Below, in pieces: positions 12,098 to 44,606 of a stretch of DNA of 64,000 nt (within the stretch, counting starts at the first letter, position 1; the number at the start of each line of letters is the position of its first letter). The position numbers were made by a program, and so were the translations under genes. Source of the DNA: an uncultured candidate division Zixibacteria bacterium (GTDB taxonomy: Bacteria > Zixibacteria > MSB-5A5 > UBA10806 > 4484-95); contig CAXXKA010000008.1 in assembly GCA_963668625.2 (NCBI GenBank), positions 1,088,001-1,152,000 on the forward strand, given 5' to 3'. The notes beneath the pieces were generated by a model. That model made no database searches. It worked only from the letters and a program-made list of their open reading frames with translations, and was not told where the DNA came from.

Positions 12098-12580
12098 TTA
12101 TCTTACCGAATCCTTACTGAAAATGTAACCGGCGTTGCGACGGTATTTGCCATCCTTACGAGTCATCATTTTCTCCATGATGAATTCCCGACGCACGAAA
12201 CAGAAATCCTCGTGGTATTTCAGGATTATCTCGTTTACCTCTTTTTCGGGGTAGACACGATTGAACTCGAAATCCTTGAGTATGAATTCGAGAATGTATT
12301 TCCTTTTCTTGCGTTGCGCCGGCAAAGTCTGGAAATAGCCGTCAACCATGAAATTATTAACTACCTTCTTACCGGGATCGGCTTGAGATTTATTGGAATG
12401 CTTTTCCAACCACTGAATTAGATCCGATTCCTTGATCCGCCAATCCTTACCGATTTTATAACCCGGTATCTCTCCGTACTTTAGCTTACGTGAAATGACC
12501 TGCACATTCATTTTCAGTAATTCAGCAACCTCGGTAGTGGTGTAGAATTTGAGTTCCGGCGTATTGTCCAATTCGTTCAT
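12098..12580 (-). CDS. excisionase-type HTH fused to a DUF2087-like domain
   Basis: YTTTEVAELLK...GEIPGYKIGKDWRI, then LPAQRKKR...YPEKEVNEII..HEDF..VRREFI. Confidence 0.8.
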   Translation of the reverse strand: MNELDNTPELKFYTTTEVAELLKMNVQVISRKLKYGEIPGYKIGKDWRIKESDLIQWLEKHSNKSQADPGKKVVNNFMVDGYFQTLPAQRKKRKYILEFILKDFEFNRVYPEKEVNEIILKYHEDFCFVRREFIMEKMMTRKDGKYRRNAGYIFSKDSVR

Positions 12581-12721: not shown

Positions 12722-13035
12722 ATGCTTGATTATAAACCGGAAAAAAAGAAAAATTTTTTCCACCATTAGATAAGGGGATAAAGACATATGTCTTAATTTT
12801 GCGTGATAATGGAGTTGAAACCTATGAATCGTGTGAAGGAGGTGAAGGCCATGCGTTTCCAGAACCAACGATTCGATTTGATGGCGAATATTATGCTGGT
12901 TTTGAAGCTCTTGCGATTGCTTTGGCTTATAATCTACCAGTCTCGGAACTAAGAAGGGTCTATTCTATAGATAACGGTGAACCAACTGGGCCGTGGTGGG
13001 AGCTGACCTTCACCCCTACCACAGATTTGATTTAG
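12722..13035 (+). CDS. small passenger protein with TYW3-like motif; the RBS-linked start needs a -1 shift
   Basis: AGGAGGT RBS and ATG 12722; A_AAA_AAG at 12742-12748 leads into the frame encoding FFPPLDKGIKTYVLILRDNGVETYESCEGGEGHAFPEPTIRF. Confidence 0.6.
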
Positions 13036-13199
13036 TGCTTGTGTTTATGACCGGATTTTTGACATTCCTTGCAAAGACGTTTTCCGCCTTTCCCGGGTGT
13101 CATATTTCTATCTTCAATGTTATTGCCGGTTGTACAGTTTGTGTCATTGTGGTAGACATTAGTTTGTTGTTTCGAGTGCCAGGGTTTCTTTTTAGCCAT
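13032..13199 (-). CDS. 55-aa small putative Zn-binding protein (below ORF-track cutoff)
   Basis: AAGGAG RBS; MAKKKPWHSKQQTNVYHNDTNCTTGNNIEDRNMTPGKGGKRLCKECQKSGHKHKH with an H-x4-C...CxxC ligand set. Confidence 0.75.
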   Translation of the reverse strand: MAKKKPWHSKQQTNVYHNDTNCTTGNNIEDRNMTPGKGGKRLCKECQKSGHKHKH

Positions 13200-13234
13200 G
13201 ATTTGCTCCTTTTTTGATTGGTTCTTTGAAAATA

Positions 13235-13620
13235 GAATTTTAAGCGACCCAATGGCGATACGGCTTTTCTTTCCCCCGTGTCCTCAAGTGTTTTTCGGTT
13301 CCTCATACGAGACCTGCCGAAGCGCAAAAGAGGGGAGCTCTCTCGTAAAGTATCGCCTGCAATATCCTGTTAAGGACCATCGTTATTAAGGTAACGTAGT
13401 GGGGCCATCTGAGGCGACCTAAACCAACAATGTCGGTTCGGTTCGTGTCATCCGGTTATCCCTTCTTGCATTTATGGGTCTTTTCCACCCCGTGTTTACG
13501 AGACCTAATTATCCTTAACTAATTAGGTAGTGCCTTGGGGGCGTCCAAAAATTTCCTAAAAACATCACCTATCCTTTCGGGAATGAGTTGAAGGTTATTA
13601 ACGGATGCCCCTTTCGGGGT
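13235..13620 (-). ncRNA. candidate structured non-coding RNA downstream of the transposase
   Basis: No convincing ORF; GAAA and UUCG tetraloop hairpins on the minus strand and several nested 7-8 bp helices. Confidence 0.4.
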
Positions 13621-13621
13621 T

Positions 13622-14434
13622 CTATATCAAAATCTCCTGCCAATTACCAAAACGAGTTGTAATGCCTGCGGCAATTGCAGGGGTTGTTTTTAGTGTTCTA
13701 TGAAGCCTTATAAAGTTGTAGTGCCAGAAGTGAAGTGCTAAGGCCGCCTTTAAATTAGCTAATTTCTTTGAAAATGCAATAGTTAATCTATTCAATCGTT
13801 TCATATAGGTTCTCATGGTAAGATTCTGCCTTTCAATATAAGACGTGCAAATCTTGTCAGGGTCAGGGTTTCCGCATATTATACTTATATCAATATCCTT
13901 TAATCGTGATGGGCTATAGCCCTCTCTTTTTATATTACCGTCACTGTGATAGCGTTTCGATAATTGGGCATAATGAATCATTGTACCGAATGTCCAGAGA
14001 ACAGCACCAGTATAGCCGTTAAAGCCGTCTGTGGTTAATTGAAAGTTCGGTTTTACACGCCGTTTTAATTGTCTCATAAACATATAGGCGTAATCTGAGG
14101 TTCTTTGACCGACTAAATATAGCGGGACGAGTTTAGTGTCTCTATCCATAGCGACATATACATAATGACTGCCGAGTCCGTCACTATCCCACGGCTTTAC
14201 GTTTGTTTGTTTCTTGCCTACATACGTCCAGATTTCATCACACTCTAAATGCTTACATTCTAAATCGTGAAAACATTGACTCATGTAGTAGAGGCAATTT
14301 TCCCCTGCACTAACCATTAATCGCATAATAGTATCCCTGTGAACGCCTGTGATGCGTTCTATGCCCCGTATGCTATTGCCCTCTACCAGTAAATTCAAAA
14401 TCATTTCCTGTTTTTCTGTTTTAAGTCGGTTCAT
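13622..14434 (-). CDS. IS1-family DDE transposase (single ORF with N-terminal HTH)
   Basis: LLVEGNSIRGIERITGVHRDTI HTH; CDEIWTYVGKK, TTDG, IERQNLTMR..KRLNRLT.AFSKK, HYNF; in-frame upstream ATG at 14479. Confidence 0.9.
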   Translation of the reverse strand: MNRLKTEKQEMILNLLVEGNSIRGIERITGVHRDTIMRLMVSAGENCLYYMSQCFHDLECKHLECDEIWTYVGKKQTNVKPWDSDGLGSHYVYVAMDRDTKLVPLYLVGQRTSDYAYMFMRQLKRRVKPNFQLTTDGFNGYTGAVLWTFGTMIHYAQLSKRYHSDGNIKREGYSPSRLKDIDISIICGNPDPDKICTSYIERQNLTMRTYMKRLNRLTIAFSKKLANLKAALALHFWHYNFIRLHRTLKTTPAIAAGITTRFGNWQEILI

Positions 14435-14444
14435 GGCTTTTCCC

Positions 14445-14554
14445 TTGACTATTTGAGCGGGAAAGCCGATAATTAACATGGTTCGACTAAGCGGCTCACC
14501 CCGCTTGGTTGATACTTACCCGTCCCGATGTGACCGCATCGGGCGGGAGTTTTT
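14445..14554 (+). ncRNA. antisense sRNA unit 1 with own promoter
   Basis: TTGACT-N17-GATAAT (14445-14473), hairpins CGACTAAGCGG/CCGCTTGGTTG and CCCGATG/CATCGGG, then a T-run. Confidence 0.6.
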
Positions 14555-14559
14555 AAGGG

Positions 14560-14591
14560 GGATAGCCTATCGGAAAACCGACAGACTATCC
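14560..14591 (-). promoter_or_regulatory. 14-bp RNA hairpin in the transposase leader
   Basis: GGATAGTCTGTCGG-TTTT-CCGATAGGCTATCC is fully paired (two G-U) only on the minus strand. Confidence 0.55.
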
Positions 14592-14603
14592 AGAAAAAAA
14601 TAT

Positions 14604-14696
14604 TTAAGTTTTTATAGGTGGTGGCGGGCGTGGTATAATTAGGCAAGTTTTTAAGAAAACACTTGCCAAACCAATGTAATTATTGTATAATAACAT
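14604..14696 (-). CDS. putative 30-aa leader or toxin-like peptide MLLYNNYIGLASVFLKTCLIIPRPPPPIKT
   Basis: GGAAGGGG RBS-like sequence before ATG 14696; hydrophobic core then RPPPP; RBS overlapped by antisense sRNA 2. Confidence 0.4.
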   Translation of the reverse strand: MLLYNNYIGLASVFLKTCLIIPRPPPPIKT

Positions 14697-14760
14697 CACA
14701 ATCGAACCCCTTCCAAAGGGTTTAAAGTTGGCCGGACTGCTGCAATCAGTTCGGCTTTTT
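14663..14760 (+). ncRNA. antisense sRNA unit 2 with own promoter
   Basis: TTGCCA-N17-TATAAT (14663-14691), hairpins GAACCC/GGGTTT and GGCCGGACTG/CAGTTCGGCT, then a T-run. Confidence 0.65.
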
Positions 14761-15184
14761 AATTGTTAGGTTCTTGCGAACCAGCAACGTCAGGCCTTAA
14801 TGCCTTATAGAGGCCTACATCAACCTTCTCGATCTTTTTGCCCTTGACCAAGTTACTAAGCATGGCAAACATAGCCCCTTCAAAGCTTTTGGCTGTAGAT
14901 TTATAGCCTTTTCTTAGTACTATTTGCCTGATTTGTTTAGCCCTTAATGATTTAGGGTAAACTTCTGTCAGGGTTTGGACAACATAAGATCCTAAAGACT
15001 GAGGCGTGCTATTATCGGTTGTAAGGTCAAAAGTCTCGCCCTCTGTCTCAACATTTAGGGGGATTTGCCCTTGATACCTATTAAGCATACGCCTAACTGC
15101 CTCTAAGTCAGCGTTTAACGCCTTGATCTGTTGCGTTAAGTCTTGTTCAATCTTTTGTAGGTTTTGTACAATTTCTTTACTCAT
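14759..15184 (-). CDS. passenger protein: coiled coil plus winged helix-turn-helix
   Basis: LQKIEQDLTQQIKALNADLEAVRRML coiled coil; SLRAKQIRQIV...AMLSNLVKGKKIEKVDVGLYKA wHTH-like; ATG 15184 preferred over 15319. Confidence 0.65.
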   Translation of the reverse strand: MSKEIVQNLQKIEQDLTQQIKALNADLEAVRRMLNRYQGQIPLNVETEGETFDLTTDNSTPQSLGSYVVQTLTEVYPKSLRAKQIRQIVLRKGYKSTAKSFEGAMFAMLSNLVKGKKIEKVDVGLYKALRPDVAGSQEPNN

Positions 15185-15257
15185 ACCCCAAATATAACAT
15201 AAATGATTCTGGAACACAAGTATTTTTTTAAGAAATCTTGGTTTTTCTTGCATTAGT

Positions 15258-15293
15258 GTGGGTTTACTTGTGGGTTTACTTGTGGGTTTACTT
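15258..15293. repeat. 3 x 12-bp tandem repeat GTGGGTTTACTT
   Basis: Three perfect copies plus a degenerate fourth, ~35 bp inside the IS end. Confidence 0.9.
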
Positions 15294-15590
15294 ATGGGTA
15301 TGTTATTATCTATAGACATATATAGCCTCTTTTGTTTTTAAATTAGGTAAAAGAAAGGAAAATAAAATTGAGGAATTAAAAATGAAAAAAAAGAATAAGA
15401 AACTGACCTTTCCTGGTTTCCAAGCGCTGCTTGGAAACCTTCTTGAGTTATGTAGAATACGCATTCTGCAGGCAAACAAGCCATGTTACGAAGCAGCGCC
15501 TCTCAACGAGATGGAAAGACCAGACAGTAGTGATGTACAAATTTTATCGAAGTTAGGATTCCCAGATTATGTCCCAATCCCCCTTTCAGC

Positions 15591-15617
15591 CGTAACTTAT
15601 CCTCCGGCCTTGCGTAT
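15591..15617 (+). promoter_or_regulatory. ECF-sigma-type promoter upstream of the ABC transporter
   Basis: CGTAACT-N15-CGTAT; same spacing as three other sites. Confidence 0.5.
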
Positions 15618-15657
15618 CATTTTATGTGTCAGTTACATAATAACTTAATAATACCGT

Positions 15658-16350
15658 ATGGACGCGATGAGCAATCCCTGGATCAAGATAGAGAACATAT
15701 CACGGCATTATAAACGAGCCAGATCAACCGTGCGAGCCCTGGATGGCGTTTCGATTGCCATAAAACGCGGTGAGTTCGTGGCCATTGTCGGCTCCTCGGG
15801 CTCGGGTAAATCCACGCTTCTAAATCTGATAGCCGGACTCGATCATCCCACCGCCGGTAGTATCATCCTCGATGGCCTCGACTTGAACGATCTAACACCG
15901 CGCGCCAAAGCCAGAATCAGGGCCGAGAAAATCGGTATGGTGTTCCAATCGTTTAACCTTCTGCCGCAACACTCGGCGATAATGAATGTCGAGATGGCCC
16001 TGTATTTCGATAAGATGCCCCGGCATAAACGTCACGGGAAAGCTCTCGAGACTATGGAGAAACTGGGCCTGGCGGAGCGTTTAAACCATCGCCCGGCAGA
16101 TTTATCCGGCGGCGAACAACAGCGGGTGGCATTCGCCAGGGCGCTGGTGAAATCACCGGAGCTGCTTCTGGCGGATGAGCCAACCGGCAATCTCGATAAG
16201 GATAACTCAGCGATAATCATGGGATTAATGAAAGAGCTTAATTCCGGCGGGCAAACTATTATCATGGTAACGCACGACTTGAAATCGGCGGAGCAGATCG
16301 CCGACAGGCTTATAAGATTAAATTACGGAAAACTTTCCGAGGATAGTTAG
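15658..16350 (+). CDS. ABC transporter ATP-binding protein (LolD/MacB type)
   Basis: GSSGSGKS Walker A, LSGGEQQRV signature, LLADEPTGNLD, VTHD. Confidence 0.95.
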   Translation: MDAMSNPWIKIENISRHYKRARSTVRALDGVSIAIKRGEFVAIVGSSGSGKSTLLNLIAGLDHPTAGSIILDGLDLNDLTPRAKARIRAEKIGMVFQSFNLLPQHSAIMNVEMALYFDKMPRHKRHGKALETMEKLGLAERLNHRPADLSGGEQQRVAFARALVKSPELLLADEPTGNLDKDNSAIIMGLMKELNSGGQTIIMVTHDLKSAEQIADRLIRLNYGKLSEDS

Positions 16351-43055: not shown

Positions 43056-44606
43056 ATGCATAATGGCGAAACGATTTTCCAATGGTATTCTCTTCTGCCC
43101 CTGATCGGCATGTTCTTCATGTTGTCTCTTGCAGTCGTTTCACTCGTCTCCGGCCGCAAAGTTCTTCTCTGGAAAATGCTGGCTATTTTCGCGCTGCTTT
43201 TATCATTGACGGCTTTTTTCGCTTTTAAAGCAACTATTTCAACCAACGACTACGAACTTTATAAGTATGTTCGTTTCGCGCCTTTTTTTGCGGTGATGTC
43301 GGTTTTGTTCGCGGTTCATTACAGTATGCTTTTAACCGGTCAACCGAATCATATAGAGTTATTTTTCGGTCGGGCTTCCTTGAGGACATATATTTTTTTC
43401 GTAGTAATCCCACTGGGAGTTATTCTTGCCCTGGCCCTTCATAAAGGGCTGGTTTTATCGAGTGCGTACCTGACCGAACCAGGCGGCATTCGGATCGAGT
43501 ATGGCCCCCTGATAGCATTACCGCTTATAATTATCATAGGGGGATTCACGAAAATCATCATATCAATCAACAGGACTTACAGGTCATCGGTAGATAAATC
43601 TTTCCGTAAATTCCTGAGATTGAACCTGCTTGCTTTCAGGGTAACTTATGGCCCGGCTCTGGGGCTTTTTATAATTTTGCCTCTTTTCGGTATTCAGTCT
43701 CAGGTGTTTGCTTTTATCGCATTCCCCCTGGCGGTGGTTATATTCTATATCGCTATTGTCCGTTACCAGTTCGATATGGTGGATGATTTGAATCGCGGGC
43801 TCGAGAGGAAAGTCGAGGAACGTACGGCCCAGTTAAAACATGCGCAATCACGCCTGGTTCAAGCCGAAAAAATGGCCTCCCTGGGTACGCTGGCGGCGGG
43901 TGTTGCTCATGAGATAAACAATCCCATCGGCGCGGTTATCAGTATTCATGGCTCGCTGGTAAGCGCTATCGATAACCTGAAAAATTGCTTACCGCAAAAA
44001 AGGGATGACTCAGGATGCGAGAAACTCGAACAATCGCTTAAAATCATCGATGATGCCAACCGGGTGATTAACGATGGCTCCAGACGCGTGGCAGATATTG
44101 TCAGAACACTGAAAAGCTTTGCCCGTCTCGACCAGGCCGATCTGCAAAAAGCCGATATTCATATGGGTTTGGATGACACGATTAAACTAATCAGCCATCA
44201 GTTGAAAAACAGAATTACCATCGAGAAAAAATATTCCGATATCCCTGAAATTAACTGTTTCCCGGGACCTTTAAACCAGGTTTTTCTGAACATTCTCATA
44301 AACGCAATCCAGGCCATTGAAGGCGAGGGGAAGATCACTATTTCAACCTCAAAAGTCGGCGACCATATCCGGGTAGTTATCAGCGATACCGGTAAGGGAA
44401 TTTCCGCTGAAAACCTGAAAAAGATATTCGATCCGGGATACACGACTAAAGGCGTAGGCGTAGGCACCGGTTTGGGGCTTTCGATATGCTATCAGATTAT
44501 CGAGGATCATCAAGGAGAAATCAAAGTAGAAAGCGAGCCGGGCAAAGGCACGACATTCACGATTATCATTCCCGCAAATTTAAATACCGAAAATAACGGC
44601 CTGTAA
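43056..44606 (+). CDS. multi-TM sensor histidine kinase (NtrB-like)
   Basis: N-terminal TMs; EKMASLGTLAAGVAHEINNP; NQVFLNILINA; DTGKGI; GTGLGLSI. Confidence 0.92.
   Translation: MHNGETIFQWYSLLPLIGMFFMLSLAVVSLVSGRKVLLWKMLAIFALLLSLTAFFAFKATISTNDYELYKYVRFAPFFAVMSVLFAVHYSMLLTGQPNHIELFFGRASLRTYIFFVVIPLGVILALALHKGLVLSSAYLTEPGGIRIEYGPLIALPLIIIIGGFTKIIISINRTYRSSVDKSFRKFLRLNLLAFRVTYGPALGLFIILPLFGIQSQVFAFIAFPLAVVIFYIAIVRYQFDMVDDLNRGLERKVEERTAQLKHAQSRLVQAEKMASLGTLAAGVAHEINNPIGAVISIHGSLVSAIDNLKNCLPQKRDDSGCEKLEQSLKIIDDANRVINDGSRRVADIVRTLKSFARLDQADLQKADIHMGLDDTIKLISHQLKNRITIEKKYSDIPEINCFPGPLNQVFLNILINAIQAIEGEGKITISTSKVGDHIRVVISDTGKGISAENLKKIFDPGYTTKGVGVGTGLGLSICYQIIEDHQGEIKVESEPGKGTTFTIIIPANLNTENNGL

Follow-up and report, generated by a model that had tools for sequence, protein, structure and literature searches.

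A candidate layered control region with two antisense RNA units and an R-x-P-P leader open reading frame upstream of a distantly IS1-type transposase gene

Introduction

The question raised by the locus described here is what the roughly 330 bases directly upstream of a transposase gene do. The window, that is, the whole stretch of DNA that was analyzed, comprises 64,000 nucleotides (nt) of contig CAXXKA010000008.1 (positions 1,088,001 to 1,152,000 of the forward strand) from an uncultured candidate division Zixibacteria bacterium (assembly GCA_963668625.2), and all positions given below are counted within it. The minus strand of the window carries a gene for an IS1-family-like DDE transposase. 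An initial annotation had placed two small RNA units antisense to the leader of this gene and had interpreted them as a duplicated cassette that represses transposition in two steps. Our analysis suggests, with a probability of about 60%, that the upstream ~330 bases form a layered control region whose net effect would be repression, exerted by two antisense RNAs together with a leader open reading frame (ORF) on which ribosomes would stall. The features needed for the argument are listed below.

13622 to 14434, minus strand: IS1-family-like DDE transposase gene, a single ORF of 270 amino acids (aa) with an N-terminal helix-turn-helix (HTH).
14435 to 14467, minus strand: hairpin that pairs the Shine-Dalgarno region of the transposase and immediately precedes the ATG at 14434; its loop holds the -35 box of P1.
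14445 to 14473, plus strand: P1, the promoter of unit 1 (TTGACT-17-GATAAT, 10/12 matches).
About 14478 to 14554, plus strand: unit 1 small RNA (hairpin 1, 14483 to 14512; hairpin 2, 14519 to 14547; T-run, 14550 to 14554).
14563 to 14592, minus strand: spacer hairpin 3, about 12 nt after the leader stop codon.
14604 to 14696, minus strand: leader ORF with 30 sense codons, the last of which read PRPPPPIKT before the stop; the R-P-P-P-P codons are at 14616 to 14630.
14663 to 14691, plus strand: P2, the promoter of unit 2 (TTGCCA-17-TATAAT, 11/12 matches), inside the first leader codons and read antisense to them; its -10 box overlaps leader codons 2 to 4.
About 14698 to 14760, plus strand: unit 2 small RNA (5' hairpin, 14699 to 14730, with the inner stem at 14704 to 14723; terminator, about 14730 to 14756; T-run).

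Results

Unit 1 and its promoter

Analysis of positions 13500 to 15800 revealed P1 and P2 as the best sigma-70-type matches of this region, at the places where the initial annotation had reported them. The total number of promoter matches in the region is unremarkable (10 versus 5.4 +/- 2.5 in shuffled sequences). The units stand above chance because they are conserved in homologous loci. At the position of P1, a promoter with at least 9/12 matches was found in 10 of the 13 loci having unit 1 RNA, compared to 2.3% of 5000 random 52-nt windows. A third promoter-like site at 14611 to 14639 was dropped because its position is not conserved across loci, and a plus-strand ORF at 14478 to 14642 (54 aa) was rejected because its ATG lacks conservation.

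Folding of unit 1 on the plus strand (14479 to 14555) revealed two hairpins with -41.5 kcal/mol and a z score of -6.9; the minus strand gave -31.8 kcal/mol. The 5' and 3' ends of the RNA are predicted positions; a search for sequencing runs listed no RNA run for this sequence. RNAalifold analysis of the ten closest loci (41 to 65% transposase protein identity) revealed 22 consensus pairs, 10 of them with compensatory changes. The 220 pair cells of these loci include 166 Watson-Crick pairs, 41 G.U pairs that exist on the plus strand only, and 1 cell of the opposite kind. When read on the transposase strand, the 41 G.U cells are A.C mismatches.

A covariance model of unit 1 was built from the same ten loci. 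The model yielded 14 matches in 13 of 151 genomes of the phylum; among the compared loci (numbered with the prefix L), the matches beyond the training set were L003/L137, L074, and L054. In 18 model-aligned sequences, 93.0% of the cells pair (75.4 +/- 1.3% when shuffled) and 17 of the 22 pairs vary on both sides (9.3 +/- 1.7 when shuffled), in an alignment that was fitted to the model and that favors the model's structure. Neither value was reached by any of 500 shuffles, and slid controls paired at 30 to 47%. The loops of unit 1 are short and fairly conserved, and no variable "guide" loop is evident. A further model match in the window (43392 to 43457, plus strand, 20.3 bits, E 0.0078) is probably due to chance, as it has no promoter or leader context.

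By covariation and strand-specific G.U pairs, unit 1 is predicted to be a conserved structured plus-strand RNA. It is an RNA family without an Rfam entry: a search of positions 13000 to 16000 at E values up to 10 returned a single match, rhtB (E 8.5), on the other strand and over hairpin 3. The proposed link of the units to c4-type RNAs of phages P1 and P4 gained nothing from this search, which gave no such match. The statement that the units are antisense to the transposase leader was borne out, and they recur in homologous loci.

Unit 1 RNA is antisense to the spacer that separates the leader ORF from the transposase gene. The initial annotation had let each RNA cover the region just upstream of a minus-strand ATG, at 14479 (in frame with the transposase) and at 14696. 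Both ATGs exist, and unit 2 adjoins the one at 14696, but the ATG at 14479 has no counterpart in the homologues examined; homologue comparison revealed the ATG at 14434 as the conserved transposase start. Unit 1 lies about 45 nt from this start and leaves the ribosome-binding site uncovered, so that the supposed coverage of the region just before the transposase start had to be given up.

The leader ORF

The ATG at 14696 opens a leader ORF and is preceded at a distance of 10 nt by the Shine-Dalgarno sequence GGAAGGGG. The upstream regions were compared in a set of 106 oriented loci, each with at least 200 nt upstream of the transposase. An R-x-P-P, PPPP, or M/R-PPP motif was found upstream of the transposase in 26 of the 106 loci on its strand versus 4 of 106 on the opposite strand, and for R-x-P-P-type motifs, 50 shuffles of the 106 loci gave a mean of 4.8 and a maximum of 9. 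In 17 of 20 loci, the leader has a start codon in frame (ATG or GTG), mostly preceded by a purine-rich Shine-Dalgarno sequence, and its stop codon follows the motif within 0 to 17 codons in most loci. In the window, four codons (P, I, K, and T) lead from the R-P-P-P core to the stop.

The Arg of the motif is present in 22 of 22 loci and is encoded by five different codons (CGC in 7, AGA in 6, CGT in 5, CGG in 2, and CGA in 2). The residue after it is P in 15 loci, G in 4, S in 2, and A in 1. An Arg that is invariant through five codons indicates selection on the peptide and not on the DNA. The motif also accompanies unit 1 outside the training set of the model: in all six matches examined there, it lies on the strand opposite unit 1 at a distance of 30 to 160 nt, once in the form R-A-P-P. 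The leader peptides range from 4 to ~45 residues and are mostly nonhydrophobic, and the R-x-P-P core is their only conserved part. The leader peptide of the window has a hydrophobic stretch. Judged by this conservation, the RPPPP peptide of the window is a conserved RAPP-like leader ORF, and this ORF is probably the center of the control region.

The conserved G-rich plus-strand motif at 14617 to 14633 encodes, on the transposase strand, the Pro codons with synonymous variation. For this reason, its assignment as an IS1-type end, of which the window also holds no inverted copy, and its assignment as a tRNA 3' end were both rejected. In the metagenome locus L053, PPPP lies in frame at the extreme C terminus of an upstream helix-turn-helix-like ORF, with an internal ATG and a strong Shine-Dalgarno sequence directly before it. 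In this arrangement, the PPPP motif can be either a protein tail or a 9-codon mini-ORF.

Unit 2 and its position over the leader start

Folding of unit 2 on the plus strand (14697 to 14762) revealed a hairpin and a terminator with -22.6 kcal/mol and a z score of -3.5; the minus strand gave -17.8 kcal/mol and a z score of -1.3. In the window, the terminator stem contains two G.U pairs on the plus strand. The two hairpin and T-run units of the initial annotation, including the terminator at 14730 to 14756, were thus recovered. Their origin by duplication, for which shared "AACAT..TCGA" letters had been cited, was not: no direct repeat joins the two units, and the unit 1 covariance model misses unit 2. 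With neither shared sequence nor model similarity, units 1 and 2 share a layout but are not duplicates.

A plus-strand terminator was found 80 to 150 nt past the G-rich motif in 11 of the 13 closest loci, and a minus-strand terminator past the motif was found in none of these 13. Between the motif and the terminator, 5 of the 11 terminator-bearing loci have a plus-strand promoter with at least 10/12 matches. No common unit 2 sequence was seen by eye across the loci, and unit 2 appears to be conserved only in position and layout.

Unit 2 is antisense to the Shine-Dalgarno sequence and the 5' untranslated region of the leader ORF; in the window, the first unit 2 hairpin spans this Shine-Dalgarno sequence. 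Where P2 is strong (5 loci), the end of its -10 box is separated from the leader start codon by exactly 2 nt in 4 loci (window, L014, L016, and L019), and a gap of 1 to 3 nt was read by eye in L133, L136, and L137. With the -10 box 2 nt from the leader ATG, the transcript would begin between the Shine-Dalgarno sequence and the start codon and would cover the leader Shine-Dalgarno sequence. A subgroup of five loci (L045, L047, L053, L056, and L074) is without unit 2, and there a same-strand upstream gene abuts the leader ORF. A near-palindrome of the TTACA..TGTAA type was seen by eye around P2 and the leader start in the window (14663 to 14692), L011, L012, and L015, in differing frames, which suggests a possible protein-binding site.

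Hairpins of the mRNA strand

Analysis of the transposase strand with RNAfold revealed a Shine-Dalgarno hairpin before the transposase ATG in all 16 loci examined; the sequences of its arms vary from locus to locus. Its folding energy does not tell the strands apart. In the window, the -10 box of P1 abuts the outer arm of this hairpin. With the P1 boxes in and next to the hairpin, unit 1 begins at the hairpin foot and spans the 75 nt that precede the hairpin in the mRNA, not the ribosome-binding site.

Hairpin 3 has -23.6 kcal/mol and a z score of -6.0 on the minus strand, and the spacer has -15.5 kcal/mol on the plus strand. In 12 of 16 loci, the corresponding spacer has its lower folding energy on the transposase strand; the margin reaches 5 kcal/mol or more in 6 of these loci, and nowhere is that strand worse by more than 1.5 kcal/mol. 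The whole minus-strand leader folds with a z score of -5.4, and in this modeled fold, the Pro codons would pair with the complement of unit 1. Since the spacer and Shine-Dalgarno hairpins belong to the mRNA strand and the two units to the antisense strand, the leader is a mosaic of both.

The transposase gene and its neighbors

Analysis of the transposase sequence revealed a match to Pfam DDE_Tnp_IS1 (E 4.6e-9, 37.2 bits, cut-off 24.1) that spans only 32 residues; the NCBIfam IS1 model scored 73.4 bits, under its cut-off of 100. D67, D137, and E202 are invariant acidic residues in an alignment of 11 sequences, and database sources label the homologues "IS1 family transposase." The product of the gene at 13622 to 14434 is accordingly classified, by sequence similarity, as a putative, distantly IS1-type DDE enzyme.

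The transposase region and unit 1 RNA are present in one copy each in the 4.3-Mb genome. Transposase homologues (E <= 1e-20) were found in 39 of 285 genomes of the same class, almost always one per genome. A metagenome scan revealed a transposase relative in 536 of 599 pattern-matched stretches, and the best 80 of these 536 were retained. In the protein database, the transposase family comprises at least 7809 clusters at E <= 1e-20 (8000 candidates scored). A search for inverted repeats in 10 loci, from 1.4 kb upstream to 0.7 kb downstream of the transposase, gave no consistent pairs; the best ones matched at 13 to 14 of 16 bases and had scattered positions. An empty-site comparison with same-genus and same-family genomes gave no synteny, only gene fragments with 67 to 82% identity. 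Neither terminal inverted repeats nor multiple copies, which mark the IS1 family, were found at the locus.

The control region is bordered upstream by a further gene.

14759 to 15319, minus strand: upstream gene of 186 aa, on the same strand as the transposase, of no known family.

The 186-aa gene has no match in Pfam, NCBIfam, or PHROG, and HARE-HTH is a weak Atlas lead (score 0.87). Relatives identified with jackhmmer are located upstream of the transposase and on its strand in L023, L017, L049, L022, L014, and L088 (E 1e-42 to 3e-20). No minus-strand promoter with at least 10/12 matches was found between the 186-aa gene and the transposase, so the mRNA probably reads from the former into the latter. 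The 186-aa gene, the leader ORF, and the transposase gene are probably cotranscribed. Within the 186-aa gene, 15257 to 15299 hold 3.5 tandem copies of a 12-nt unit, which corresponds to a repeated four-residue motif near the N terminus.

A gene with DUF2087 and HTH_17 (excisionase-like) domains (12098 to 12580, minus strand) follows the transposase gene on its strand at a distance of about 1 kb. It is placed likewise in L013 (61% identity), and a relative with 65% identity lies near a transposase fragment in G013; this gene may belong to the same element as the transposase. A terminator-like hairpin with a T-run was noted at 13665 to 13681 on the plus strand, within the 3' end of the transposase gene and antisense to it.

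The module in related loci and tRNA-like elements

The 14 matches to the unit 1 model were inspected for their surroundings. The module abuts an intact transposase gene in nine of them, one has only a transposase fragment, and four have no transposase within 1.5 kb. A gene like the 186-aa gene was seen by eye on the transposase-equivalent strand in three of these four (L135, L138, and L139) and on the opposite strand in the fourth (L136). In L135, the similarity ends at about the position of the transposase start codon.

In several relatives, an additional element was observed. tRNA-like elements are located upstream of the transposase, on its strand, in L012, L015, L017, L020 to L023, L027, L031, L034, L036, L044, L049, L050, L055, L135, L137, and L138. 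They are positioned either immediately upstream of the transposase or in the interval that separates the leader ORF from unit 1. Those read by eye have a G3.U70 acceptor pair and a T-loop, and their anticodon arm is in many cases unusual or absent. ARAGORN called 12 tRNAs in the 106 loci; every one lies on the transposase strand, and the anticodons of several are impossible. Rfam searches of the elements returned tRNA matches together with subthreshold matches to tmRNA ends and mascRNA. In several loci, a plus-strand promoter and a terminator exactly flank the tRNA-like element, so that an antisense RNA of the element would be made there. The window has only hairpin 3 in this place.

Discussion

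Proposed mechanism and points that weigh against it

From the sequence features, their conservation and covariation, and their strand and geometry, transcription, stalling, pairing, and direction of effect can be proposed as follows. An mRNA reading from the 186-aa gene on the transposase strand would carry the leader ORF with its Shine-Dalgarno sequence, a structured spacer, and a hairpin that locks the transposase Shine-Dalgarno sequence. Ribosomes translating the leader ORF would stall at R-P-P-P, and the hairpin would keep the transposase Shine-Dalgarno sequence closed. The opposite strand would carry two independent, outward-directed small RNA genes, each having its own promoter of the sigma-70 type and ending in an intrinsic terminator. 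By pairing with the leader Shine-Dalgarno sequence, unit 2 RNA would block leader translation or create a substrate for cleavage by RNase III. Unit 1 RNA would form a 75-bp duplex beside the Shine-Dalgarno hairpin, by which the leader could be held closed or made cleavable. The combined layers would hold transposase output at a very low level and make it dependent on translation status. Stalling itself could act either as an activator or as a repressor of the transposase.

Several findings weigh against this proposal. Unit 1 RNA begins too far upstream to reach the ribosome-binding site and start codon of the transposase, and the classic RNA-OUT mechanism is therefore not directly applicable. 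The stall would occur ~190 nt upstream of the transposase Shine-Dalgarno hairpin, and no computed feature explains how it would act there. Unit 2 lacks sequence conservation, and a strong promoter accompanies its terminator in fewer than half of the terminator-bearing loci. The pairing values of the 18-sequence alignment are subject to the bias toward the model noted above. Use of a minus-strand promoter-like site (14716 to 14687, 9/12 matches) would give an mRNA that begins past the leader ATG. In five loci, the leader is of the M(R)PPP form and has only 4 to 15 codons, too short for tunnel-dependent arrest, and these leaders look more like plain polyproline. R-P-P-P, present in the window as R-P-P-P-P, is the commonest form overall (15/22), and according to PMC12992588, it is only partly permissive in ApdA. 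Finally, the R-x-P-P leader is retained together with unit 1 and a unit resembling unit 2 in L135, L136, L138, and L139, none of which has a transposase within 1.5 kb.

A more specific version of the proposal holds that a cytosolic RAPP-like arrest leader gates the DDE transposase together with the two antisense RNAs and that relatives add an alanine-type tRNA-like element. It is put forward tentatively, with the odds somewhat against it.

Alternative explanations

The four transposase-less loci indicate that the module may serve something besides the transposase. The upstream gene, unit 2, the leader ORF, the spacer or tRNA-like element, and unit 1 could form an independent module with a main role other than transposase repression; its small RNAs would work in trans or target the upstream gene, and the transposase would be a passenger or a later addition. 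This is unlikely. In its favor, 4 of the 14 model matches are intact (promoter, hairpins, and leader motif) with no transposase within 1.5 kb, one has only a transposase fragment, and a same-strand gene like the 186-aa gene precedes the module in several loci. Against it, 9 of the 14 matches abut an intact transposase gene, and the P1-bearing hairpin incorporates the Shine-Dalgarno sequence and start of the transposase. The loci lacking a transposase may have arisen by recent deletion, and the genome of the window contains no other copy and no obvious trans target. Unit 1 RNA might instead be a cofactor or guide of the transposase, comparable to bridge or omega RNAs, and not a repressor. A well-conserved structured RNA that is absent from Rfam and located beside a transposase gene would fit this idea, and so would the missing terminal inverted repeats, which leave end recognition unexplained. 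Transcription of the RNA, however, starts at a promoter within the Shine-Dalgarno hairpin of the gene and runs away from that gene, which is the geometry of antisense control; the RNA has no evident variable guide loop, and RNA use is not known for IS1-type DDE enzymes. A guide function is thus improbable.

It is very improbable that the hairpins belong to an mRNA-strand leader or attenuator alone, governed by the stalling ORF, with the plus-strand promoters and T-runs being incidental. The leader ORF and hairpin 3 do lie on the mRNA strand, and the stable fold of the whole minus-strand leader is in accordance with such a view, but the G.U cells of unit 1 would be A.C mismatches on that strand in 41 cases versus 1 opposite case. 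The retention of P1 in 10 of 13 loci and the distribution of terminators (11/13 on the plus strand, 0/13 on the minus strand) also argue for plus-strand RNAs. The leader ORF and unit 2 might be a type I toxin-antitoxin pair of a small toxic peptide and its antisense RNA: the ORF is small, the RNA lies over its Shine-Dalgarno sequence, and the peptide of the window has a hydrophobic stretch. Yet only the R-x-P-P core is conserved among peptides that vary so widely in length and are mostly nonhydrophobic, and there is little reason to credit this interpretation. Least of all can the promoter- and terminator-like matches be put down to chance in AT-rich intergenic DNA. The number of promoters in the region, only about twice the shuffled expectation, would allow this, but positional conservation, covariation, and recovery by the model in other genomes contradict it. 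The layered control region thus remains the preferred explanation of the locus.

Comparison with known systems

Antisense control of transposases and RAPP arrest are each known; both in one leader were not found in the literature searched, and neither was a published combination of a transposase with an arrest or stalling leader or a RAPP motif, or of IS1 with an antisense RNA. The word "transposase" was not found in the main texts of the arrest-peptide papers examined, including PMC12992588. If the proposed reading is correct, unit 1 defines a new transposase-associated RNA family, and the leader represents a previously undescribed use of arrest peptides: an arrest peptide without a secretion signal that couples a mobile-element gene to the state of the translation machinery (for example, proline or EF-P supply or ribosome stress). 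As a compact case of a short cytosolic R-x-P-P leader, the locus raises the questions of what relieves arrest without a translocation force and whether mobile elements sense translation stress. A tight brake with several layers would also help to explain why so large a transposase family is mostly single-copy per genome.

Classical IS1 is characterized by InsA/InsB frameshifting and terminal inverted repeats. The transposase studied here resembles IS1 in its distant DDE similarity and its N-terminal HTH. It differs from IS1 in its single ORF, its single copy per genome, the lack of detected inverted repeats, and its putative control by RNAs and a leader ORF instead of InsA and frameshifting. 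The two units are like the c4/CI RNAs of phages P1 and P4 in being small structured antisense regulators, as proposed here, in mobile DNA, and unlike them in having no Rfam match and a different gene context.

RNA-OUT of IS10/Tn10 exerts antisense control over the transposase mRNA, RNA-IN, and covers the transposase ribosome-binding site and start codon. Units 1 and 2 appear to be of the RNA-OUT type in that each has its own predicted promoter and terminator and lies on the antisense strand in the transposase 5' region. The likeness extends to the form of a stem-loop RNA of ~70 nt, to an outward promoter, to full complementarity to the transcript, and to the low transposase expression that would result. 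Unlike RNA-OUT, unit 1 stops short of the transposase start, and the second RNA is aimed at the Shine-Dalgarno sequence of the leader ORF, not of the transposase. RNA-OUT has no sequence or Rfam relation to either unit.

The mgt leaders of Salmonella are polyproline leader peptides that depend on EF-P. The leader ORF shares with them consecutive Pro codons in a short ORF, and downstream expression could likewise depend on translation capacity. Unlike the mgt-type leaders, it has no attenuator terminator on the mRNA strand.

PMC12992588 describes the Arg of the RAPP arrest in ApdA and ApdP as irreplaceable, the exchange of Ala for Gly as fully permissive or enhancing, and its exchange for Ser, Asp, or Pro as partly permissive. 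According to the same paper, EF-P does not relieve RAPP-type arrests, and RAPP and RGPP are avoided in proteomes and enriched near the C termini of small ORFs upstream of diverse genes. The leader ORF differs from the RAPP monitors in its short peptides, in the lack of a consistent signal or membrane segment (judged by reading the sequences), and in the dominance of R-P-P-P. In typical known monitors, such an N-terminal segment allows localization to relieve the arrest. The downstream gene of the leader ORF encodes a transposase and not, as described for these peptides, a protein for protein localization or metal homeostasis. Like the RAPP/RGPP peptides ApdA, ApdP, and CruR (PMC12992588 and PMC10951233), the leader is a small ORF upstream of a same-strand gene with R-x-P-P near the C terminus. 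It also appears to share their essential Arg core and small x residue: the Arg is invariant, and x is limited to P, G, S, and A, which are fully or partly permissive according to PMC12992588. The invariant Arg and the alternatives G, S, and A suggest that the leader is of the RAPP type rather than plain polyproline.

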